DNA of 64,000 bases from Vicinamibacteria bacterium (GCA_041485905.1 JBGPKK010000004.1:1525-65524); one strand, 5' to 3'. Shown: positions 52,535 to 64,000, counted from the stretch's first letter. Made by a program: numbers and translations. The notes: generated by a model from the sequence alone, not told the origin.

Positions 52535-52609
52535 ACTCGCCCGCTTATCGTGGGTAATGGGGTAAAATCCGCCTATCGGATAAGCCGAACGATAAAGAAA
52601 GAATCCATT

Positions 52610-54544
52610 ATGAATCGACGCCTGTTGGTCGCCTGCGGCGCGGTGCTGTTGCTGTGGATCGTCGGAGTGAGCGGCGCCGGGCGCAGCGTGGTCGCCGACG
52701 CGGCCATGAAAGGAGACAAGGCCGCGCTCCGCACGCTGCTGCAGCAGAAGAGCGACGTCAACGCGCCCCAGATCGATGGGGCGACGGCCCTGCATTGGGC
52801 GGTGTACCGAGATGATCTCGCCACGCTGGACCTGTTGATCCGCGCCGGAGCGACGATCGACGTGGCCAATCGCGAGGGCATCACGCCGTTGGCGATGGCG
52901 TGTCTCTACGGCAACGTCTCGATGATCAACAAATTGATCAAAGCCGGCGCGGATGTGAAGCAGCGCGGACCGAACGGACAGACGCCGCTCATGCTTGCCG
53001 CGCGTAACGGCGAGCCAGAGGCGATCAGGGTCCTCATCGCCGCCGGCGCAGAGGTAAACGCGAAAGAGCCGGTGCGCGGCACGACGGCGCTCATGTGGGC
53101 AGTCGAACAGAAGCATTCGTCGGCCGTCAAGGCGCTGCTCGACGGCGGCGCGGACTTCAAAGCCCGCTCGGGCGGCGCCGGTCTGCCCCGAGCCTATATG
53201 TCCGGGCGCGTGAACACCGCAGCGGTTGAAGCCGCGGTTCGCCGACGTGCGGCGGCAGCCGCGGCCGGCAGAACGTACGAAGAACAGCTGATCTTCGAGG
53301 GCGTCAATGGCCGCTTTGGGGCGCCTGGCGGCGCCGGCGGCCAGGGCGCTGCGGGCGGGCGCGCGGCAGCAGCGGCCGGCCAACAAGGTGCACCGGCCGC
53401 TGCCGGAGCGGCCGGTCAACAGGCCGCGGCCGGCGGGGGTCGCGGTCGCGGCGGTCGAGGCGCGGGTGGGCGGGCTCAGGGTGCGGGCCAACCAGCCGCC
53501 GACGCTCAGGCAGAAGTCGAAAATCCGGACAACCCCGAAAACACCGAAGTGGTCGTCGCGGGCCTGGTCGGCGGCGGCAGCGGCGGCCTCACGGCGCTGG
53601 TGTTTGCGGCGAGGGAAGGCGACCTGGAGTCGGCGAATCTGCTGCTCGAAGCGGGCGCCGATGTGAATCAGGTCACGGAGTACGGCTGGACGCCGCTGCT
53701 GACAGCGACCAACAACCGGCACTATAAGCTCGGCACGTTCCTGATCGACTGGGGCGCGGACGTCAACATCGCCAACAAAGGCAAATGGACGCCGCTCTAC
53801 CTGGCCACCGACAACCGCAACATCGAGGGCGGTGATTATCCGGTGCAGAAGCCTGACATGGATCATCTGGAGTACATCAAGGTCCTCCTGGACCATGGAG
53901 CCGCTCCGAACGGCCAGGCCAAGGACAACACCTTGAGCCGCACGATCTTCACGATGCAGTGGTTCCTGGAGTCGGGCGTCACGCCGTTCGTCCGCGCGGC
54001 GCAGTCGAGCGACACCGCGCTCATGAAACTACTGCTCCAGTACGGCGCCGATCCGAAGATCGCGAGCGATCACAACGATACGGCGCTGACCGCCGCGGCA
54101 GGCGTCGGCTGGGTCGAGGGAGTGACCTACGAGCACTCGGTGAAAGAGAACGTCGAGGCCGTGAAGATGGTGCTGGATCTCGGTCTGGATCCAAACCACG
54201 CCAACAACGACGGGCGCACGCCGCTCATGGTCGCGGCGATGAAGGGCAGAAGCGAGGTGGTGCAGATGCTCGTGGACCGTGGCGCCAAGCTGGATACACG
54301 GGATCGCGGGAACCGAGACACCGAGACCACGGTGTCCGTCAATGCGGGCCACACGTGGCAGGCGCTCGATTACGCGGACGGTCTGGTTCGGGTGGGCGTG
54401 CAGTCGGCTGTCAATCGACCGGAGACTGCGGCGCTCATTCGCAAATTGATGACCGCACGCGGACTGCCGGTGCCGCCGCCCAACCGGGTCGTCGAGTCCA
54501 TCTGCATCGTGGAGATCTGCAAGGAAAGGGTCTGGGACAAATAG
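52610..54544 (+). CDS. Secreted ankyrin-repeat protein with a central Gly/Ala/Gln/Arg low-complexity insert
   Basis: Signal peptide MNRRLLVACGAVLLLWIVGVSGA. Repeated G.TALHWA / G.TPLM.AA / LL..GADVN ankyrin motifs lie on both sides of the insert. Confidence 0.85.
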   Translation: MNRRLLVACGAVLLLWIVGVSGAGRSVVADAAMKGDKAALRTLLQQKSDVNAPQIDGATALHWAVYRDDLATLDLLIRAGATIDVANREGITPLAMACLYGNVSMINKLIKAGADVKQRGPNGQTPLMLAARNGEPEAIRVLIAAGAEVNAKEPVRGTTALMWAVEQKHSSAVKALLDGGADFKARSGGAGLPRAYMSGRVNTAAVEAAVRRRAAAAAAGRTYEEQLIFEGVNGRFGAPGGAGGQGAAGGRAAAAAGQQGAPAAAGAAGQQAAAGGGRGRGGRGAGGRAQGAGQPAADAQAEVENPDNPENTEVVVAGLVGGGSGGLTALVFAAREGDLESANLLLEAGADVNQVTEYGWTPLLTATNNRHYKLGTFLIDWGADVNIANKGKWTPLYLATDNRNIEGGDYPVQKPDMDHLEYIKVLLDHGAAPNGQAKDNTLSRTIFTMQWFLESGVTPFVRAAQSSDTALMKLLLQYGADPKIASDHNDTALTAAAGVGWVEGVTYEHSVKENVEAVKMVLDLGLDPNHANNDGRTPLMVAAMKGRSEVVQMLVDRGAKLDTRDRGNRDTETTVSVNAGHTWQALDYADGLVRVGVQSAVNRPETAALIRKLMTARGLPVPPPNRVVESICIVEICKERVWDK

Positions 54545-54552
54545 ACCTTTGG

Positions 54553-54616
54553 CCATGAAAGCACGCAATCACGAAAAGGACCCTGGCGTTATTTTCGTGT
54601 TTTCGTGTTTTCGTGG
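54553..54616. repeat. Hairpin built from tandem 8-mers (CACGAAAA / TTTTCGTG x3)
   Basis: TTTTCGTG x3 perfect at 54592-54615. The left arm is degenerate, CCATGAAA GCACGCAAT CACGAAAA. It lies between convergent genes and contains the stop of the minus-strand gene. Confidence 0.7.
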
Positions 54617-55282
54617 TTGCCTTTCCTTCTGAGTGACGAGCGCCGCTTTGACGCGCGGGGCGGAAGGCAGCAGCATCACGCCGGTCAGGTACAACGCCAC
54701 TGTGACAAACGCGACATAGCCGGTGATTGCGGCCGGTGGCTGGTACTGCAGCCCGCCGAGCGTCACCCCCTCCAGCAGAGTCATCACCACGCGTTTGGCC
54801 AGACCGCCCCGCGGATCGTACAGCGAGGCCAGCACGATGTACTTCAGAACGAACGCCCCGCCGAAGACGACCGCCAGGCTGCGCAGGAGCCGCGACCGAT
54901 CCGGCTGGGCCGCCCACGTGTTGAACAGCAGCAACAGAAAGAACATCGTGAAGATGAAGTGAAGGAAACCCGACTCCGGCGTCATCAGGTTGAAGACCTG
55001 TGCGCTCGCCGCGAACAGCGTGGCGATCACAATCGCGCCCGATAGATTTTCCAGAGCGGAGCGGTCGGACCGCATCAGCCGTTGCGGTGCGAGCACACCC
55101 GCACGGAACAGCAGGCCGAGAACGAGCGTGGCAAGGATGAGCGCGATGAGCGGCGGCGGCAGAAACCCCATCCCTTGACCGATCGTCGATCGGAATCCGC
55201 CGAGCAGCGCGACCGTGAGGAAGAGCAGCGGCAGCGTGAACGCCTCGTGCGCGGCCGTGGGGTCAAAGATCGTCGAACGCAC
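54569..55282 (-). CDS. Hypothetical integral membrane protein
   Basis: 6-7 hydrophobic helices. GTG start overlaps the upstream stop by 1 nt. Confidence 0.6.
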   Translation of the reverse strand: MRSTIFDPTAAHEAFTLPLLFLTVALLGGFRSTIGQGMGFLPPPLIALILATLVLGLLFRAGVLAPQRLMRSDRSALENLSGAIVIATLFAASAQVFNLMTPESGFLHFIFTMFFLLLLFNTWAAQPDRSRLLRSLAVVFGGAFVLKYIVLASLYDPRGGLAKRVVMTLLEGVTLGGLQYQPPAAITGYVAFVTVALYLTGVMLLPSAPRVKAALVTQKERQPRKHENTKITPGSFS

Positions 55283-55812
55283 TACTTCCGTTCCTGAAGC
55301 AGCTTCAGCGGGTTCAGATCGGCAAGACCGTGCGTCAGGCCGCGCTCGAGTTCCGCCTTCAGCTCGGCGGCCGAGTGCATGCCCAGCGTCGGGTCGTCCA
55401 CAGTAACGGCCGGATTGGGCGCGACGGCCGTCGCACGATTGACCGCGTCGAGACCTTTCCGAAACAGATCATCGTCGTTGTAGATCCTGCCCCACCCTTC
55501 CCGGTAACAGCTGTATGCCACGTAGAACTGCGTGCGCGCATCCTGCTGGGCGGGATCGGCGCGCTCGAACGCCGCTCGGGCTTCCGGAAAATGATCGCCG
55601 CGGAAGAACGTGAGCCCGCGGTCGAAGCTCGCGGCATCGATTCTGTACGCGCCGACGGTCGAGGCGACACCGCCTGTCATCTGGGCGATGGTGCGCGGCT
55701 GGTTGATGTACACCCACACGATGAACGCCGCGTAAAGCAGCGCGCCTGCGGCGCCGGCGAGTCGGGTCAGCGGCGCATTCATCCGGGCATGATTATTGTA
55801 CCGTCGATCCAC
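55282..55812 (-). CDS. Hypothetical membrane-anchored protein
   Basis: A single TM (LAGAAGALLYAAFIVWVYI) followed by a soluble helical domain. An alternative start is Met 11 at 55782. Confidence 0.55.
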   Translation of the reverse strand: MDRRYNNHARMNAPLTRLAGAAGALLYAAFIVWVYINQPRTIAQMTGGVASTVGAYRIDAASFDRGLTFFRGDHFPEARAAFERADPAQQDARTQFYVAYSCYREGWGRIYNDDDLFRKGLDAVNRATAVAPNPAVTVDDPTLGMHSAAELKAELERGLTHGLADLNPLKLLQERK

Positions 55813-55861
55813 AGCATCCGGGACGCCAGGTCGCCCTGCGGGGCATCCTCAACGTCGACGT

Positions 55862-55891
55862 TTGACATCCCGCCCGCCGCTATGTTATTTA
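55862..55891 (+). promoter_or_regulatory. Sigma-70-like promoter of the blaI-like operon: TTGACA, 18-nt spacer, TATTTA
   Basis: Read directly. The -10 element lies inside the palindromic operator. Confidence 0.45.
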
Positions 55892-55920
55892 CATAGCACT
55901 TGTGCTACTAAAATAACATA
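55881..55920. promoter_or_regulatory. 40-bp AT-rich near-perfect palindrome (probable BlaI-family operator)
   Basis: TATGTTATTTACATAGCAC TT GTGCTACTAAAATAACATA. The outer 10-nt arms and inner 6-nt arms are perfect, with 3 mismatches between them. The last base is the A of the blaI-like ATG. Confidence 0.6.
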
Positions 55921-56312
55921 TGGCCAAATCACGCCCTACGGTTCTGACACGGCGCGAGCGGCAGATCATGGACATCCTCTACCGGCGTGGCCGTGCCACC
56001 GCCGCCGAGGTGATGGACGAGCTCTCGGGCGATCCCAGCTCCTCAACGGTCCGCACTCAATTGCGCGTCCTGGAAGAAAAAGGTCACGTCCGCCACGAGG
56101 AGCAGGGACTGCGCTACGTGTATGTGCCGGCCGTGCCTCGCCATTCGGCGCGGAAATCGGAATTGAGACACCTCGTCGATACGTTTTTCGACGGCTCCGC
56201 GGAGAAGGCCGTCGCGGCGTTGCTTGGAGGTGATGGCGCCCGGTTCTCCGATGAGGAACTGGAGCGCATGGCCGATCTCATCGCGAAGGCTCGGAAGGAT
56301 GGTGCCCGATGA
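55920..56312 (+). CDS. BlaI/MecI/CopY family transcriptional repressor
   Basis: LTRRERQIMDILYRRGRATAAEVMDEL...STVRTQLRVLEEKGHV winged-helix pattern; 130 aa. ATGA overlap with the next gene. Confidence 0.9.
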   Translation: MAKSRPTVLTRRERQIMDILYRRGRATAAEVMDELSGDPSSSTVRTQLRVLEEKGHVRHEEQGLRYVYVPAVPRHSARKSELRHLVDTFFDGSAEKAVAALLGGDGARFSDEELERMADLIAKARKDGAR

Positions 56313-57961
56313 ACACGATGAACCTGCTTCTCACCAGCACGATCAAGGTGTCCCTCATCGTGCTCGTCGCGCTGATGGCGGTCGCAGCGCTGCCGAAACG
56401 ATCCGCCTCGGTGCGACATTGGCTGCTCGCCGCCGCCATCGTCTGTGCGGCGGCGGCACCGCTCCTGGAGGCGGTCGTGCCGGCATGGGATCTCCGGCGG
56501 GCCGAGTCATCGGGCGGAGGCATGACCCTCGGCGAGACGCTGTACCAGGCCGCGCCCCGGCAGGCGTCCCCACGGCACCGCGTGAGCGTCGGACGGTTGG
56601 TCGGTCAGACCCTCGTGCCGACCTGGATCGCAGGTGCGAGCATCAGCCTGTCCCTCCTGCTCGTCGGACTCGCGCGGCTGGCGTGGCTCGCCTCAGGTTC
56701 CGAGCGGATCCGCCGCGGGACATGGTACGACCTGGCGGAGGCCATCTCCCGGGAGTACGGGCTACGCCGTACGGTCCTGCTGCTGCAAAGCGATCATCCC
56801 ACGTTGCTTGTCACCTGGGGACTGATGCGGCCGAAGGTCATTCTGCCGCGGGCGGCGCGCGAATGGTCTGAGGACCGTGCGCGCATCGTCCTCTGTCATG
56901 AACTGGCGCACATACGGCGCGGAGACTGGGTCGTGCAGATGGCGGCCGAGATCGTGCGGTCCGTCTACTGGTTCAATCCCCTTGTGTGGATCGCGTGCAG
57001 GCGGTTGCGTCTGGAGAGCGAACAGGCCTGTGACGATAGGGTGCTCAACCTTGGCGTGGAACGAACCGAATACGCCGCCGAGTTGTTGGACCTCGCACGC
57101 GCGTTCAAGACACACCGGCGGATCCTGGCGTTTGGGTCTCCGGCGCCAGCCATCGCCCATCCGTCCAGTCTCGAAAGGAGAATTCGCGCCATGTTGAATG
57201 CCCGTCTCAATCGAAACCCCGTCACGCGATCGACCTCGGTCGTGACCGCGATCGCGTTATTGACCATCACGGTCTCGATCGCCGGATTCGGCGCGGCCGC
57301 GCAGTCTGGAGCCGCCACGTTCTCGGGAACCCTCATGGATGCGATCGGTCACATTCTCCCAGACAAGGCCGTTGTGCTCGCGGACGTTCAGAGCAAGGCG
57401 AAACACGAAACTCGCAGCGACCAGAACGGTCACTTCGAGCTCGGAGGACTGCCCGCGGGCGAGTATCTCCTTGAAACGGCGCTCGTCGGTTTTGCCAGGG
57501 AGCAGGGCCGTGTCACGCTCGGGGCCGGACAGAACCTGAAGCAGGACGTCGTCCTCCAGGTCGGCTCGCTCTCGGAGACGATTTCGGTCACTGGGGGCCC
57601 GGACAGTGGTGGTGGGACGATCCGGGAGTCGCGGAACGCTTCCACTCAACCCGAAGTCGATCCGTGCAGCCAATCAACGATTGGCGGGTGCATTTCTCAG
57701 CCGAGGAAGATCCGAGACGTGAAACCGCGATACCCTCAGCAACTGTGGGAAGCCGGGAAGGGTGGCACCGTCCGCCTCGAGGGACGCATCGGCACCGACG
57801 GATTCTTGAAGGATCTGCGAGTGATGGCTCCGGCCGATCCCGATCTGGCCAATGCGGCGGTCGAGGCCGCCAGTCAGTGGCAGTTTTCGCAGACACGCCT
57901 GGACGGGGTCCCGATTGAAGTCCGCCTGACTATCAGCGCCAATTTCAAACCGCAGCAGTAG
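56309..57961 (+). CDS. BlaR1-type M56 peptidase sensor with C-terminal CarboxypepD_reg-like and TonB_C domains
   Basis: TM block, HELAHIRRGD (HExxH), then GTLMD...NGHFELGGLPAGEYLLE (CarboxypepD_reg-like), then KPRYPQQLWEAGKGGTVRLEGRIGTDG...QWQF (TonB C-terminal). Confidence 0.85.
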   Translation: MNTMNLLLTSTIKVSLIVLVALMAVAALPKRSASVRHWLLAAAIVCAAAAPLLEAVVPAWDLRRAESSGGGMTLGETLYQAAPRQASPRHRVSVGRLVGQTLVPTWIAGASISLSLLLVGLARLAWLASGSERIRRGTWYDLAEAISREYGLRRTVLLLQSDHPTLLVTWGLMRPKVILPRAAREWSEDRARIVLCHELAHIRRGDWVVQMAAEIVRSVYWFNPLVWIACRRLRLESEQACDDRVLNLGVERTEYAAELLDLARAFKTHRRILAFGSPAPAIAHPSSLERRIRAMLNARLNRNPVTRSTSVVTAIALLTITVSIAGFGAAAQSGAATFSGTLMDAIGHILPDKAVVLADVQSKAKHETRSDQNGHFELGGLPAGEYLLETALVGFAREQGRVTLGAGQNLKQDVVLQVGSLSETISVTGGPDSGGGTIRESRNASTQPEVDPCSQSTIGGCISQPRKIRDVKPRYPQQLWEAGKGGTVRLEGRIGTDGFLKDLRVMAPADPDLANAAVEAASQWQFSQTRLDGVPIEVRLTISANFKPQQ

Positions 57962-57980
57962 TATTCTCGTCGATGCAAAG

Positions 57981-59756
57981 ATGCTGCAACTCGCAGTGCT
58001 CGCCTTGCTCGCGCAGGGTCCGCCGGCCCAACCGGCATCGACCGCGCCGGGCACCATCGAGGGTGTGGTCGTCAAGGCCGGCACGCGCGAGCCGCTCGCC
58101 GGCGCACGAATCCAACTGAATCGCGAAATCGGCGACCCATTCCAGCGCGTGCAGCGCCAGCCTCCACCGGGGAGCGGCGACCCTCCGCCTCCCCCTGAGG
58201 ATCACTTCGGAGCCACGACAGGATCTGACGGTCGCTTCGTGATTGAGAACGTTCCGCCTGGAGAATATCGGCTGTACGCCACTCGCACGGGTGGATATGT
58301 GCCGGCCGAGTACGGTCAGCGCTCACCGACCGGACGCGGGATTCCCTTCGAGCTCATGCCCGGCCAGAAGGTGACGGGCATCCAGCTCACTCTGACTCCG
58401 ACCGGTTCGATCACGGGCCATGTGTACGATCGCGACGGCGAACCGGCGGGCCGCGCGGTCGTGCAGGCTCTGAGGCCGTACTACCGCGACGGCACGCGGA
58501 CGTTGACGATCGTCGAATCGGTGCTGACCAACGACCGCGGGGAGTACCGGCTCTTCTGGCTGCCCCCGGGGCAGTACTACGTGACGGCAAAATCCGGCGA
58601 CGAGCCAGACAGCCGTCCTGTGCGCATCACCGAACCGGCTCGCTTTGTCACGTTCGAGCAAGCGACAAGTCCCGCCGTGAGAAATCGAACATTGCCAACC
58701 GGCGAAGTCGTGGAAGAAACTCAGGTCCCTGTGTATTACCCCGGAACGACGGAGGCGACCACCGCCGCGCGGATCGATCTGCGTTCGGGTGGAAACGCCG
58801 ACGGGATTGACATTCCAATCGCGGCCGGTCCGGTACGCACGCGGCACGTTCGAGGATTTGTCACCAACCAGATGACCGGGCAACCGCTCGCGCTAGCGCA
58901 AGTACTCGCGGTACCCCGGACATCCTATCCCAGCGTCGTGGTTCCCAACGATCTTTCCAAAGTTGACGGATCGTTCGATCTCGCCGGCGTCATGCCCGGA
59001 TCCTATTTCCTCTTTGCGACGACACGGGGCTTGGCCGGCGCTGTGTCCCTTCAGATCGGTGACAGGGACGTCGACAACGTGGCCATCGCGGTGACGCCAG
59101 GATTCCGCGTGTCCGGCAGAGTGATTGTCGACGGCGAGTCGAGAGACGACGGCGATCCGACCGGAGCCAGGCGTGTCAACTTGCACCGCGATCCGGACAT
59201 CCTGGGCATGCCGAGCGCCGCGCCCACATTCAGCTTTCCCTCCGCCGATGGCTCGTTCGTTCTCGAAGGGGTGTCGTTCGGCGATTTCCGTGTGACGGTG
59301 GGTCGACCGGAACGGGTTCAGTCCCTGCCGCAGGACATGTATGTCAAATCGATGCGGATGGGCAACCAAGACGTGCTGGAGAACGGGCTCCACCTGTCCG
59401 GCCAGCCGCGGGACCTGCTGGAGATCATCCTCGGAGCGAACGGCGGCAGAATCAATGGCATCGTCATGAATGCGAGGAGGGAACCGCTGGCGGGTGCGAC
59501 TGTCGTGGCGGTTCCGAATGCCAGCGATCGGTCCAAAAGCGACCGCTACAAGAAGGTGGCGAGCGATACGTCGGGCCGGTTCCGACTGCAGGGTCTAGCG
59601 CCCGGCGAGTACACCGTGTTCGCCTGGGACGACATCGAAGAGGGCGCGTGGCAGGATCCTGACGTCATGCGCGCCTATGAAAGTCGTGGCACGTCGGTTC
59701 GCGTTCGCGACGGAAACGACGAGAACGTCCAATTGACGGTCATCACAGGACGCTGA
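57981..59756 (+). CDS. CarboxypepD_reg-like repeat protein, paralog 1
   Basis: Repeated G.V....G.P..GA.V......DG.F....PPGEY motifs. Minimal signal-like N-terminus MLQLAVLALLAQG. Starts 19 nt after the sensor gene. Confidence 0.8.
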   Translation: MLQLAVLALLAQGPPAQPASTAPGTIEGVVVKAGTREPLAGARIQLNREIGDPFQRVQRQPPPGSGDPPPPPEDHFGATTGSDGRFVIENVPPGEYRLYATRTGGYVPAEYGQRSPTGRGIPFELMPGQKVTGIQLTLTPTGSITGHVYDRDGEPAGRAVVQALRPYYRDGTRTLTIVESVLTNDRGEYRLFWLPPGQYYVTAKSGDEPDSRPVRITEPARFVTFEQATSPAVRNRTLPTGEVVEETQVPVYYPGTTEATTAARIDLRSGGNADGIDIPIAAGPVRTRHVRGFVTNQMTGQPLALAQVLAVPRTSYPSVVVPNDLSKVDGSFDLAGVMPGSYFLFATTRGLAGAVSLQIGDRDVDNVAIAVTPGFRVSGRVIVDGESRDDGDPTGARRVNLHRDPDILGMPSAAPTFSFPSADGSFVLEGVSFGDFRVTVGRPERVQSLPQDMYVKSMRMGNQDVLENGLHLSGQPRDLLEIILGANGGRINGIVMNARREPLAGATVVAVPNASDRSKSDRYKKVASDTSGRFRLQGLAPGEYTVFAWDDIEEGAWQDPDVMRAYESRGTSVRVRDGNDENVQLTVITGR

Positions 59757-59757
59757 T

Positions 59758-61464
59758 ATGATCCAGTTGGCGCTCATCGCGCTCCTCGCCCAGAACGCAT
59801 CTTCGTCCATTCAAGGCGTTGTCTTGAACGCCGGGACCTCCGTTCCGCTTTCCAAAGCCATCGTCGAAATCCTGGGAGACGACAACAGCGCGCCTCCGCT
59901 GCACACCACGACCACGGAAGGCAACGGACGATTCCTGATTCCGAACGTACGCCCGGGCCGCTATCGGCTCGTCGCCAGTCGGCCCGGCTACGTGCGCCGG
60001 ACGCTCAGCGTCGCTGTCTCGCAAGGGCGGACCGAAGAGGTGCAGGCGCTGCTGACCCCGACCGCCGCAATTTCCGGACGGGTCACCGGCGTCAACGGCG
60101 AGCCGATGGGCAACGTCGACGTCGACGCGTTGAGGGCGTCGTATCAGGACGGGCGCCGCGTTCTGACGGCGGTGCAATCCGCGCATACCGACGATCGCGG
60201 CGAGTATCGACTGTTCTGGCTGCCCCCGGGCAGGTACTACGTGAGCGCGACACATTCGGACGCAAAAAGCATGGTGCACCGGATGATTGCGTCCGGCCTA
60301 ACCATCAGCGTTGGCGGCGGCCCGAGGCAGTTCAACATGGTGAGATCGACCGGCGATCCCGCGGTGGCCGGGTCAATCTTCGGGCCCGGAGTCGAGGAGC
60401 AGCAATCGGAGCGCTACGTCACTGTTTACTTCCCCGGGACGATCAGCGAACAGACCGCGTCGCCCATCGATGTGCGCGCGGGCGCCGATGTCGGCGGCGT
60501 CGACATGCAGCTGGCGCCCGGGCGCGCGCGGCACGTGCGGGGCGTGGTCGTCAACGGGGCGACGGGGCAGGTCGCCCAATACGCGGGGCTCCGGGTGATT
60601 GGGGCCGCTGCCCTTCCGGGCAGGCTGGGGATGACCGGCAGCGGCCAGGCGGAAATCAACCGGGACGGCTCGTTCGACCTCACGCTGTTACCCGGACCGT
60701 ATACGTTCGTTGGCACCGCCGGGAATGGAGTCGGCTATGTGAGCCTCGAGATCGGCGATGCGGAGGTCGACGGAGTCCAGGTGGTCGCGCTGCCCGAGTT
60801 CAACGTCAACGGCCGTCTCGTCAGCGACGGCGGGGACAACGCCGATCTGCTTGACCTTCGCATCAGCCTCCGCCGTGATCTTGGCATTCAGGTTACGGAG
60901 TCGCCCGCGTCCAGCTTGTATAGCAATCCGCGTGCGGACGGAACGTTTGTTGTGGATGCCACTCCCGGAGACTATCGGGTGAGCGTGTCCCCGATCCTGA
61001 ATCTCAATCCAGCTCCTCCGTCCTTCACGGTGCCTCCGAGTCTGCGCAACGCCTACATCAAGTCGATCCGCCTGGGAAACGTGGACGTGCTCAACAGCGG
61101 CGTCCATCTCGAGCGCCCGCCGTCAGATTTCCTCGAGATCGTCATCGGCACCAGGCCGGGCACTGTCGAAGGCACCGTCGTCACCGAGCAGCAATCTGCG
61201 GCCGCTGGCGCTACGGTCGTACTGCTGCCAGATTTTCGTCGTCGAACGGAGCTGTACAAGACGATCACGACCGATGCGTCGGGCCGATTCCACATGGACC
61301 GGGTTCCTCCGGGCGATTACCGCCTGTTCGCATGGGACGACATCGAAGAGGGCGCGTGGCAGGATCCTGACGTCATGCGCGCCTATGAAAGTCGTGGCAC
61401 GTCGGTTCGCGTTCGCGACGGAAACGACGAGAACGTCCAATTGACGGTCATCGCAGGGCGCTGA
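59758..61464 (+). CDS. CarboxypepD_reg-like repeat protein, paralog 2
   Basis: Starts 1 nt after the paralog 1 stop. MIQLALIALLAQNASS... The last 120 nt before the final two sense codons are identical to paralog 1. Confidence 0.8.
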   Translation: MIQLALIALLAQNASSSIQGVVLNAGTSVPLSKAIVEILGDDNSAPPLHTTTTEGNGRFLIPNVRPGRYRLVASRPGYVRRTLSVAVSQGRTEEVQALLTPTAAISGRVTGVNGEPMGNVDVDALRASYQDGRRVLTAVQSAHTDDRGEYRLFWLPPGRYYVSATHSDAKSMVHRMIASGLTISVGGGPRQFNMVRSTGDPAVAGSIFGPGVEEQQSERYVTVYFPGTISEQTASPIDVRAGADVGGVDMQLAPGRARHVRGVVVNGATGQVAQYAGLRVIGAAALPGRLGMTGSGQAEINRDGSFDLTLLPGPYTFVGTAGNGVGYVSLEIGDAEVDGVQVVALPEFNVNGRLVSDGGDNADLLDLRISLRRDLGIQVTESPASSLYSNPRADGTFVVDATPGDYRVSVSPILNLNPAPPSFTVPPSLRNAYIKSIRLGNVDVLNSGVHLERPPSDFLEIVIGTRPGTVEGTVVTEQQSAAAGATVVLLPDFRRRTELYKTITTDASGRFHMDRVPPGDYRLFAWDDIEEGAWQDPDVMRAYESRGTSVRVRDGNDENVQLTVIAGR

Positions 61465-61466
61465 CC

Positions 61467-63185
61467 ATGATCCATCTTGCGCTCATCGCGCTGCTCGCTC
61501 AGAACGCGTCTTCTTCACTTCAAGGCATTGTCTTGAACGCCGGGACCAACGCTCCGCTTTCCAAAGCCGTCGTCGAAATCCGTGGAGACGACAGCAGCGC
61601 TCCTCCGCTCTACACCACGACGACCGAAAGCAATGGAAGATTTCTGATCCCAAATGTGCGGCCGGGCCGCTATCGGCTTGTGGCCAGTCGACCGGGGTAC
61701 GTGCGCCGGACGCTCAGCGTGAGCGTTGCCCAAGGACGGACCGAAGACGTACAGGCGTTGCTGACGCCGACCGCCGCCATTGCCGGACGGGTCTCTGGCG
61801 CCAACGGCGAGCCGATGGGCAACGTCGACGTCGACGCGCTGAAGGCATCGTATCAGGATGGACGACGCATTCTCACCACCGTGCAAACCGTGCGGACCGA
61901 CGATCGCGGCGAGTATCGACTCTTCTGACTGCCCCCGGGCCGATACTACGTGAGCGCGACGCATCAGGACGCGAAAGGCATCATGGAAAGGATGATGGGG
62001 TCGGCTGGAACCTTCGAGGGCGGCATTGGCGTCGGCCCGAGCCCGGGTGGTTTCAACCAAGCCAGATCCGTCGGCGATCCCGCCGTCGCTGTCCAACTGC
62101 CCCAGCTCGAGCTCGAAGCGCAGCAGCAGTCGGAACGGTACGTGGCCGTCTATTTCGCAGGAACGATTAGCGACCAAAGCGCGTCGCCCATCGATCTGCG
62201 CGCCGGCGCGGACGTCGGCGGCGTGGATCTGTTGCTGGCGCCGGTGCGCGCGCGGCACGTGCGAGGCGTCGTCATCAACGGCGCGACCGGGCAAGTCGCG
62301 CAGTACGCGGGGCTCAGAGTGATCGGCGCCGCTTCCCTTCCCGGTGGGCCTGGTGGCGGCATGAATGCCGACGGCCGCGCGGAAATCAACGAGGACGGCT
62401 CGTTCGACCTCACGCTGTTTCCTGGATCGCATATCTTGATCGGCACCGCCGGAAACGGAGTCGGATACGTGAGCCTCGAGCTTGGCGATGCGGATATCGA
62501 CGGAGTCCAGGTTGTCGCGCTGCCCGCGTTCAACATTCCCGGCCGCCTCGTCAGCGACGGCGGTGACGACGCAGACCTGCGTAACCTTCGCATCAGCCTC
62601 CGCCGCGATTTGGGGATTCAGGCCACCGCGTCGCCGTCGTACAGTAATCCCCGTGCAGACGGAACGTTCGTCGTGGAGGCGACTCCTGGAGACTATCGGG
62701 TAAGCGTCTCCCCCATCCTGAATCTCAATCCGGGTCCTCCGTTCTTCACGGTGCCGCCGAGTCTGCAAAACGCGTACGTCAAGTCGATCCGCTTGGGAAA
62801 TGTGGACGTTTTGAATATCGGGGTCCGCCTCGAACGCCCGCCGGCAGATTCACTCGAGATCGCCATCGGCACCAATCCAGGCGCCGTCGAAGGCACCGTC
62901 GTGAACGAGCAGCAGGCGGCTGCTGCCGGTGTCACCGTGGTTCTCCTCCCCGACTTCCGTCGTCGAACCGATCTCTACAAGACCATTACGACCGATGCAT
63001 CAGGCCGATTCCACATGGATGGGGTTCCTCCGGGAGACTACCGCGCGTTCGCGTGGCGGGAGGTGGGCGACGGATCCTGGCAGGATCCGGAATTCATCCG
63101 CGCGTACGAAAACCGCGGAACGCCGGTCCGAGTCGGTGAGGGAACGCCGACCCCCGTCACGCTGACCGTGATCCCGCCGCAGTGA
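61467..63185 (+). pseudogene. CarboxypepD_reg-like repeat protein, paralog 3, interrupted by an in-frame TGA at 61926-61928
   Basis: Track ORFs 61467..61928 and 61950..63185 are in the same frame. RLF*LPPGRYYVSATH aligns with RLFWLPPGRYYVSATH of paralog 2, a TGG->TGA change. Confidence 0.7.
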
Positions 63186-63292
63186 TATTTTCTCTGACGG
63201 ATGTAGGGGACGGTCTTGAGATCGTCCCGAGAGGAAGGCGATGCGATGCGGCGGCGTTGGTGTATTCTGATGCGCAAGAGAGCCTCCCACAA

Positions 63293-64000
63293 ATGAAGAG
63301 CACACGCCACGTTCGCTTCGCTCTGTTCGTTGCGGCGCTGGCGTCGGCAACGTCAGGCGCGATCGCCATCGCGCAAACGGTGTCGCTGAAGCCGCCCACC
63401 GCCGCCGATTGGGATGCACTCGCCAAACTGCCCGACTTCACAGGTGTGTGGGAAACGGGCGGCGGCCCGGCACCGCAGCGAGGCGGAGCCCGCGCCGGTG
63501 CGCCAGGCGATGCCGCTGCGCCCGCCGGAAATCGCGGAGCCGGCGCACAAACCGCACCCGCGCGAGGCCGGCAAGGAGCCGGCGCAGGTGGCGGTCGCGC
63601 GGGCGGGCCGTCGCTCACGCCTGAATACGCGGCGAAGAGAGCGGCGCTCCTCGCCAATCCGCCTGAGGACAGCCCGGCCGCCAACTGTCTGCCGCCGGGC
63701 ATGCCGGGGATCATGGGTCAGCCCTATCCGATGGAGTTTCTGCTGACGCCCGGTCAGGTGACGATCCTGATCGAGGCGTACAACCAGATTCGCCACATAT
63801 ACACCGACGGCCGCAAGCTCCCCGACGATCCCGATCCGACGTTTTACGGCACGTCGGTCGGCCGGTGGGATGGCGACACTCTGGTGGTGGACACGGTGGG
63901 CTTCTCGCCGATCACGCAGATCGCGAACGGCGTCCCGCACAGCGACAAAATGCGGATCGCCGAGCGCTTCCGGCTCGCCGATCCCGACACGATGAGCATC
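63293..64000 (+). CDS. Hypothetical exported protein (5' partial view; runs off the window end)
   Basis: Own translation: MKSTRHVRFALFVAALASATSGAIAIAQ (signal peptide), then a Gly/Ala/Arg-rich stretch, then CLPPGMPGIMGQPYPMEFLLTPGQVTILIEAYNQIRHIYTDGRKLPDDPDPTFYGTSVGRWDGDTLVVDTVGF... The frame is open to 64000 and is not in the ORF track. Confidence 0.6.
   Translation, partial: MKSTRHVRFALFVAALASATSGAIAIAQTVSLKPPTAADWDALAKLPDFTGVWETGGGPAPQRGGARAGAPGDAAAPAGNRGAGAQTAPARGRQGAGAGGGRAGGPSLTPEYAAKRAALLANPPEDSPAANCLPPGMPGIMGQPYPMEFLLTPGQVTILIEAYNQIRHIYTDGRKLPDDPDPTFYGTSVGRWDGDTLVVDTVGFSPITQIANGVPHSDKMRIAERFRLADPDTMSI

Follow-up and report, generated by a model that had tools for sequence, protein, structure and literature searches.

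Gene content and layout of the cluster

The window analysed here is a 64,000-nucleotide (nt) stretch of a Vicinamibacteria bacterium genome (GCA_041485905.1, JBGPKK010000004.1:1525-65524), with positions counted from its first letter. Near its downstream end, five reading frames, all on the + strand, fill positions 55920-63185. They encode a BlaI-like repressor, a BlaR1-like sensor protease and three multi-beta-sandwich proteins (P1, P2 and P3). P1 falls into one orthologous group, here called A, and P2 and P3 into another, called B. In staphylococci, a switch of this repressor/membrane-protease kind senses penicillin. The features at the locus are as follows.

55862-55867, + strand: candidate -35 hexamer TTGACA, read from the sequence
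55883-55898, no strand assigned: putative operator O1, TGTTATTTACATAGCA, a 16-bp dyad TGYTA-N6-TARCA found by motif search
55903-55918, no strand assigned: putative operator O2, TGCTACTAAAATAACA, found by motif search and ending 1 nt before the blaI start codon
55920-56312, + strand: blaI, winged-helix repressor of the BlaI/MecI/CopY family, 130 amino acids (aa; Pfam Penicillinase_R)
56309-57961, + strand: BlaR1-like sensor protease, 550 aa (Pfam M56, CarboxypepD_reg, TonB_C)
57981-59756, + strand: P1, type-A multi-beta-sandwich protein, 591 aa, with a signal-like N-terminus MLQLAVLALLAQ (Pfam, orthologue comparison)
59758-61464, + strand: P2, type-B multi-beta-sandwich protein, 568 aa (Pfam, structure model, homologues)
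61467-63185, + strand: P3, second type-B copy (B'), interrupted by a TGA codon (homology to P2)
63244-63259, + strand: weak terminator-like hairpin, found by a generic scan in the 107-nt gap after P3

The junctions, read directly in the sequence, give intergenic spacings of -4, 19, 1 and 2 nt, and the start of the sensor gene overlaps the blaI stop by 4 nt (ATGA). A first-pass annotation of this DNA had given the same spacings, with which the coordinates of the reading frames agree, and had proposed a single transcript, which is still the simplest reading. We read the downstream genes as part of the same transcript because the gaps are too short to hold promoters, no second copy of the operator occurs in the 64 kb, and the gene order is the same in a distant locus (L001, see below). 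Its description of the module as fused does not apply to the window, where the genes are merely adjacent: the sensor ends at 57961 and A has a start of its own at 57981. Real fusions exist in other genomes.

A motif search and a generic promoter/terminator scan revealed neither an operator nor a terminator-like site between the genes of the cluster. Across 55600-63400 the generic scan returned one promoter-like and one terminator-like match, no more than chance. The hairpin at 63244-63259 is the sole terminator-like match in the region, fewer than shuffled sequences give, and alone is no evidence; it serves to place the probable end of the unit ahead of the following gene, whose ATG is at 63293. 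The window gave no hits in Rfam and tRNA scans.

Repressor and sensor protease

The repressor matches Penicillinase_R (PF03965, 3.2e-26) over aa 9-122, which covers profile positions 1-114 of 115. Against PDB sequences it gives a weak match to the N-terminal DNA-binding domain of Bacillus licheniformis BlaI alone, and the cleavage site lies outside the aligned part.

The sensor begins with a Peptidase_M56 domain (6.4e-31, aa 3-293). Its zinc site HELAH lies at aa 197-201 (nt 56897-56911) and is followed about 35 residues further on by ESEQACDD; both are invariant across three sensor orthologues. As judged from these residues, the M56 zinc protease has an intact HExxH...E catalytic motif. After the M56 domain come a hydrophobic, presumably transmembrane segment (approximately aa 308-327), a CarboxypepD_reg domain (3.5e-13, aa 338-417, nt 57320-57559) and a TonB_C domain (3e-12, aa 472-547, nt 57722-57949). 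Pfam detects no penicillin-binding protein (PBP)/transpeptidase domain in the sensor and no match to PF00905. The NCBIfam model blaR1_generic covers the protease half alone (positions 101-323 of 585), and the sensor has no relative among PDB sequences at E<=0.001. The first-pass annotation had recognized a BlaI/BlaR1-type module with a non-beta-lactam sensor, and the Pfam domains agree with it, placing CarboxypepD_reg and TonB_C where a PBP domain would be. On its predicted domain content, the protein cannot sense beta-lactams in the canonical way.

Nor does it have the architecture of a TonB energy transducer, with an ExbB/ExbD-coupled anchor and a proline-rich spacer: TonB_C is present alone, and the N-terminus is the M56 protease. 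Neither ExbBD nor a TonB-dependent receptor is encoded among the ten large window genes that were scanned. The neighbours scanned include no beta-lactamase or PBP gene; the downstream genes encode the beta-sandwich proteins. The combination of M56 with TonB_C is not unusual, and in a 2026 survey of approximately 15,000 M56 proteins it ranked second among the M56 architectures of InterPro (PMC13492132). The same survey found a beta-lactam-binding domain in just ~6% of the proteins and a BlaI gene near ~96% of them (PMC13492132).

Predicted operators and promoter

An inverted repeat directly adjoins the blaI ATG; its two 19-nt arms are at 55881-55899 and 55902-55920. The first-pass annotation had called it a palindromic operator. 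The inverted repeat is indeed there, and it resolves into two adjacent 16-bp dyads (TGYTA-N6-TARCA; O1 and O2) and not a single palindrome. These two sites are the sole matches to the motif with at most one mismatch in the 64-kb window, in which 0.44 would be expected by chance. The motif search of the 64 kb found no separate operator ahead of P1, P2, P3 or any other gene. A TATTTA sequence 18 nt downstream of TTGACA, within O1, is a -10 candidate, and we infer that the two hexamers form the candidate promoter of the operon. The generic promoter scan did not call it. The predicted mRNA would have a very short leader and no Shine-Dalgarno sequence.

An alignment of the sequences upstream of 42 related blaI genes shows at least one operator site in 38 of the 42 loci and two in 31. 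In 29 of the 38 loci with sites, the last one ends -1 to 4 nt from the start codon, and 29 of the 42 upstream regions have TTGAC in the corresponding position. The layout in these loci is TTGAC(A), then approximately 17-18 nt, then a first site with a TATTTx -10 candidate in its spacer, then a second site. The layout, with putative operators that overlap a predicted promoter, is thus conserved in 31-38 of the 42 related loci.

A conserved pair of beta-sandwich proteins

P1, P2 and P3 match CarboxypepD_reg-type beta-sandwich families in Pfam and no others; in particular, Pfam finds no Plug or barrel that would identify them as TonB-dependent receptors. An AlphaFold2 model of P2 (pLDDT 83.7, pTM 0.76) is all-beta apart from short helices and consists of approximately five or six beta-sandwich domains and one disordered loop at residues 180-215. 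Together, the Pfam results for the three products and the P2 model support the earlier description of the proteins as made of beta-sandwich modules only. Foldseek comparison of the model with the PDB retrieves generic multi-beta-sandwich proteins only, with whole-chain TM scores of 0.1-0.2. A profile search of PDB sequences gives domain-level matches only, of which NOMO2 is the best (2.5e-27). No enzyme motif is conserved in the family.

Homologues of P2 are numerous (626 matches at 96-100% coverage, 550-620 aa in length, 40-62% identical). When one genome per species was scanned, hits came from the Acidobacteriota alone (Terriglobia, Solibacteraceae and Vicinamibacterales). Members share a fixed full-length architecture and motifs of their own (GEYRLFWLPPG, AYVKSxRLG and a C-terminal FAW...W.DP.F), so the family is more than a loose string of repeats. 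An exhaustive search with P1, which covered 1.84 billion cluster representatives, returned 3724 representatives at E<=1e-30, fusions of M56 to A among them. No function has been described for the family, the first-pass annotation having said the same of an operon of this kind, and our literature search found no paper on a linkage of BlaI/M56 to an A/B pair.

In the window and in all close loci (L003, L007-L013), two such genes are adjacent, with type A first and type B second. In the close loci, A genes are 43-68% identical to P1 and B genes 43-58% identical to P2, and A-to-B identity is 35-40%. The window thus contains a conserved ordered pair, A (P1) and B (P2), and a duplicate of B (P3). 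The proteins had previously been listed as three paralogues of 570-590 aa. Their homology stands (P1 and P2 share 48% amino acid identity, P2 and P3 80% nucleotide identity); their equivalence does not, given the A, B and B-duplicate assignment, and neither does the treatment of P3 as a single protein.

The P3 frame reads 153 codons, a stop and a further 418 codons, and the in-frame TGA (61926-61928) replaces the near-invariant Trp (Trp154) of GEYRLFWLPPG. Between P2 and P3, the ratio of nonsynonymous to synonymous substitution rates (dN/dS) has a value of 0.17 for the part before the stop and 0.22 for the part after it, so P3 has been under purifying selection almost throughout its history. 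Since dN/dS is close to 0.2 on both sides, the stop is best seen as a recent nonsense mutation, a population variant or a sequencing or assembly error. The closest relative found has an uninterrupted third gene (588 aa). Recoding of the TGA as selenocysteine or Trp was considered and rejected, because P1, P2 and P3 all end with TGA and homologues have Trp at this position.

The last ~45 codons of P1 and P2 (59620-59756 and 61330-61464) are 97% identical at the nucleotide level and the rest of the genes 50-60%. This 3' identity represents a gene-conversion or unequal-crossover tract that gave P2 the C-terminus of P1; P3 retains a native B-type end (...TVIPPQ).

The hydrophobic N-terminus without a basic n-region that was pointed out in the first-pass annotation turns out to be family-wide: 78 of 93 homologues have no K or R there, and the pattern is M, 1-4 residues, 8-10 hydrophobic residues and A-Q. 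A few homologues have a normal basic n-region, and no lipobox was found in A/B N-termini. We infer that the N-terminus is a Sec signal peptide with a degenerate n-region and that the proteins are extracytoplasmic.

Split and fused forms of the system

The order BlaI / M56-CarboxypepD_reg-TonB_C / A / B, here termed the split form, recurs with tight spacing in a distant genome, at the place represented by loci L001 and L011. The L001 proteins are 48% (sensor), 52% (A) and 47% (B) identical to those of the window. A near relative also has the split form, with A, B and B'.

Other genomes carry a fused form. In L016 (974 aa) and L105 (994 aa), the M56 gene continues without a stop into a full A module, there is no TonB_C domain, and a B gene follows. 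L136 (984 aa) and L137/L138 (1022 aa) have the order BlaI / M56-A / B with 4-nt overlaps; across the fused loci, all junctions are 4-nt overlaps or 6-nt gaps. The best 150 matches to P1 include 16 proteins, 900-1030 aa long, that have the A module as their C-terminal ~580 residues, and the L136 fusion is the second-best P1 match in the whole representative library. Of 18 long P1 relatives scanned, 11 contain Peptidase_M56 (at least 11 protein clusters).

When 75 M56 domains were compared, the nearest to those of L001, L016 and L105 was that of the window sensor, which suggests that the A/B-linked sensors share a common origin. M56 identity across the diverged lineages that bear fusions is 37-48%. 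From the recurrence of the split form, the L016 and L105 fusions and the further fusions in the library, the combination of the switch with A/B appears not to be accidental, and the window is probably a split variant of a BlaI / M56-A / B system. With A fused to M56 in many relatives, the functional link would be stronger than the first-pass annotation could know, and the fusions suggest that A belongs on the sensing side.

A second sensor, of the M56-CarboxypepD_reg-TonB_C type, lies at 10093-11069 of L137, approximately 1.3 kb downstream of the BlaI / M56-A / B operon; both sensor types therefore coexist in one genome.

Proposed mechanism and alternative explanations

The best reading of the locus is a self-repressed, non-beta-lactam BlaI/BlaR1-type regulated-proteolysis switch of an acidobacterium. 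In BlaR1 and MecR1, an extracytoplasmic event switches on the M56 protease; inactivation of the repressor follows, and this lifts repression of the operon together with its regulator genes. Here, a BlaI-like dimer would sit on the two tandem operators, which overlap the promoter and extend as far as the start codon. On the model of BlaR1/MecR1, a non-beta-lactam cue from outside the cytoplasm would activate the M56 protease, the repressor would be cleaved or otherwise inactivated, and blaI-blaR-A-B(-B') would then be transcribed as one unit. A and B could be a Sec-exported pair that acts on the extracytoplasmic side of the switch, where they may form or complete a ligand-binding receiver or bind the same ligand as the sensor. 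We assign them to this side because in relatives the A module replaces CarboxypepD_reg-TonB_C as the M56 ectodomain, with B still adjacent. Binding of a shared ligand has a parallel in the canonical system, where beta-lactams are bound by the BlaR1 sensor domain as well as by the induced beta-lactamase or PBP.

We lean, by a modest degree, towards one autoregulated unit in which A and B are functionally coupled to the sensor, and hold any specific role for A and B with less confidence. That their ligand is a glycan or envelope polymer is a guess from the fold. More tentatively, and on balance somewhat doubtfully, A/B may be an Acidobacteriota-specific heterodimeric extracytoplasmic receptor module that can be plugged into different signalling chassis. 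These would be M56 (fused), M56-TonB_C (with A/B beside it), a Tricorn-like propeller with a two-component system (L139) and ADOP/MacB-like permeases. If so, the window would hold a BlaR-type pathway that delegates signal perception to secreted partners.

Several observations weigh against a coupled unit. Among representative genomes, 45 A/B-centred loci have 2.6 kb or more of upstream sequence: 43 of the 45 have no BlaI/M56 nearby, and BlaI and M56 are directly upstream in the other two, L011 (the same place as L001) and L016. Conversely, 55 metagenomic loci with relatives of the sensor (27-58% identical) and at least 250 nt downstream were examined, and 54 have no A/B gene after the sensor; the exception is L105. 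Each module thus exists mostly on its own and neither needs the other, and the pairing of regulator and beta-sandwich proteins is not general. The operator is absent upstream of A/B pairs that have no BlaI (0.9 Mb of loci searched), and regulation of such pairs in trans by a BlaI of this type is accordingly not supported. The gaps in the near relative are wider (522, 34 and 224 nt), so the genes need not be co-transcribed in every genome. Similarity between the CarboxypepD_reg domain of the sensor and the A/B domains is only generic, on which ground we rejected the idea that it is a specific copy of one of them. Finally, neither Foldseek nor the PDB sequence searches found an A/B relative with a known function.

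One alternative, in line with the first-pass annotation, is a role of A, B and B' as pure output, that is, as induced envelope, adhesion or nutrient-capture effectors, with the cue sensed solely by the CarboxypepD_reg-TonB_C ectodomain. A/B pairs are widespread without an M56 sensor and must therefore have a function of their own; in the window they lie downstream of the regulators, in a tight same-strand cluster behind the only operator pair, and their fold resembles surface and adhesin beta-sandwich arrays. We nevertheless consider this explanation unlikely, as it is hard to reconcile with an A module that serves as the sole M56 ectodomain in at least 11 protein clusters and four inspected loci. 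We know of no canonical bla/mec output that is fused to its sensor. Very improbable, in our view, is an incidental juxtaposition of a generic BlaI/M56 cassette with unrelated A/B genes, in which read-through could occur and the real BlaI regulon would lie elsewhere. That the two modules are mostly found apart and that the neighbours of the cassette vary widely would fit; the same order in a distant lineage, gene fusions that recur in diverged lineages and the lack of another operator within the 64 kb speak against it.

A further explanation concerns the cue and is compatible with either a coupled unit or pure output. The sensor's TonB_C domain might dock to the TonB box or N-terminal extension of an outer-membrane TonB-dependent transporter, whose ligand occupancy would be the cue, as in FecA-FecR, and A/B would be accessory periplasmic or surface proteins of the uptake system. 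The TonB_C match is bona fide (3e-12), one related sensor gene (in L065) is directly followed by a gene for a CarboxypepD_reg-Plug-barrel receptor, and a signal-transducing role has been proposed for M56-TonB_C proteins of Bacteroides (PMC10350073). We regard such a trans-envelope relay as quite unlikely: the ten large window genes scanned include no TonB-dependent receptor or ExbBD, A and B have no Plug or barrel, and the fused M56-A sensors have no TonB_C, which must therefore be dispensable for this type of system.

Coupling of A/B to the sensor, the reading that we prefer, would matter beyond this locus. BlaR-like M56 proteases without a beta-lactam sensor far outnumber canonical ones, and the cue or output is established for almost none. 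The window and its fused relatives offer a concrete, testable pairing of such a sensor class with a conserved A/B partner, in a phylum that is abundant in soil and poorly studied genetically. If A/B are a receiver, they would be a new sensor module for regulated-proteolysis signalling and a handle on a family of thousands of proteins that have no assigned function; if they are output only, the locus would be an ordinary, widespread regulator ahead of uncharacterised envelope proteins. What this analysis adds is the A/B pair structure and its split and fused relation to M56 sensors.

Relationship to known systems

The closest comparison is with BlaI/BlaR1 and MecI/MecR1 of Staphylococcus aureus and B. 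licheniformis. Like these, the window has a repressor gene directly upstream of, and overlapping, an M56 gene, HExxH and a downstream Glu in the protease, palindromic operators (here predicted from sequence) at its own promoter, and an ectodomain that follows the last transmembrane helix. Unlike these, it has neither a transpeptidase-like sensor domain nor a beta-lactamase or PBP2a target, and its presumably co-transcribed genes encode beta-sandwich proteins. The operator half-sites differ as well, being TGYTA in the window and of the TACA/TGTA type in BlaI/MecI operators. As far as its sequence can tell, the window has the features of a BlaIR system except the two concerned with beta-lactam sensing, the PBP-like ectodomain and the beta-lactamase or PBP target.

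It is therefore best filed with the non-canonical BlaIR systems. These comprise CenIR of Clostridioides difficile (PMC13492132), PvmSR of Pseudomonas aeruginosa (bioRxiv 10.64898/2026.08.03.742534) and mycobacterial BlaI/BlaR, cited in PMC13492132. All share with the window a BlaI-like repressor and an M56 protease without a beta-lactam-binding domain. Unlike the window sensor, theirs have short or unrelated C-terminal regions, and none has been reported with CarboxypepD_reg-TonB_C or with A/B-type partners. TonB1 and TonB10 of Bacteroides thetaiotaomicron, which are uncharacterised M56-TonB_C proteins (PMC10350073), have the same order of M56 and TonB_C; the window differs from them in the CarboxypepD_reg domain between the two and in the presence of the BlaI gene, the operators and the A/B pair.

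FecA/FecR/FecI offers a possible analogy: there, an inner-membrane protein that spans the periplasm makes contact with a receptor in the outer membrane, and a transcription response is set free by regulated proteolysis. The sequences are unrelated, however, and the cluster lacks an extracytoplasmic function (ECF) sigma or anti-sigma factor, an STN domain and a receptor gene. The A/B proteins themselves have tandem beta-sandwich domains like those of human NOMO (9c7v), Bacillus anthracis TIE (6fwv), Gram-positive pilins and the SdrD B repeats, and Foldseek matches the P2 model to such arrays at the domain level (E 1e-14 to 1e-8). They differ from these arrays in whole-chain comparison (TM 0.1-0.2), in the lack of a sortase or isopeptide context, in a full-length architecture and motifs of their own, and in their restriction to the Acidobacteriota.

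Neighbouring genes in the window and in related loci

A BlaI orthologue is upstream of the sensor in 48 of 48 related loci with room for one, and various other genes follow such sensors. In L064, L067, L073, L078 and L081, BlaI/M56-TonB_C cassettes are followed by TIGR03435-family genes (4e-66), between one and four in tandem. This is another Acidobacteria-specific secreted family behind the same type of switch, and the literature search gave no paper on it. HEAT-repeat proteins follow sensors in five distant loci. The TonB-dependent receptor gene of L065 (2015-3007; CarboxypepD_reg, Plug and barrel) directly after an M56-TonB_C sensor is the sole case seen.

Relatives of A/B also occur in other settings. 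L139 (4001-8894) carries an A module joined to a Tricorn-like propeller/tetratricopeptide repeat region at its N-terminus (1010 aa), and a B gene comes next; on the upstream side there is a pair of genes for a histidine kinase and a response regulator, and on the downstream side one for an ECF sigma factor. More remote relatives in the beta-sandwich family (29-37% identity) occur in L029 (13456-16044) and L051 (11606-14113) and also in L031 and L033. In all four loci they are followed, with 4-nt spacing or a small overlap, by ADOP-family duplicated permeases (TIGR03434, 1e-244; MacB-like).

Downstream of the operon, 107 nt after P3, a + strand gene (63293-64000, running off the window end) encodes a protein with a normal basic signal peptide, MKSTRHVRFALFVAALASA, and no Pfam or NCBIfam match. 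In 13 loci, homologues of this gene (approximately 300-350 aa) lie no more than 6 kb from A/B genes, and a DUF6152 gene is often their neighbour. Upstream of the operon (52550-54544 and 54569-55812) are genes for a secreted ankyrin-repeat protein (664 aa) and two overlapping minus-strand membrane proteins (237 and 176 aa) that match no family. The near relative has these three genes beside its operon too, and in L006 an ankyrin-repeat protein is encoded approximately 4 kb from the A/B pair.

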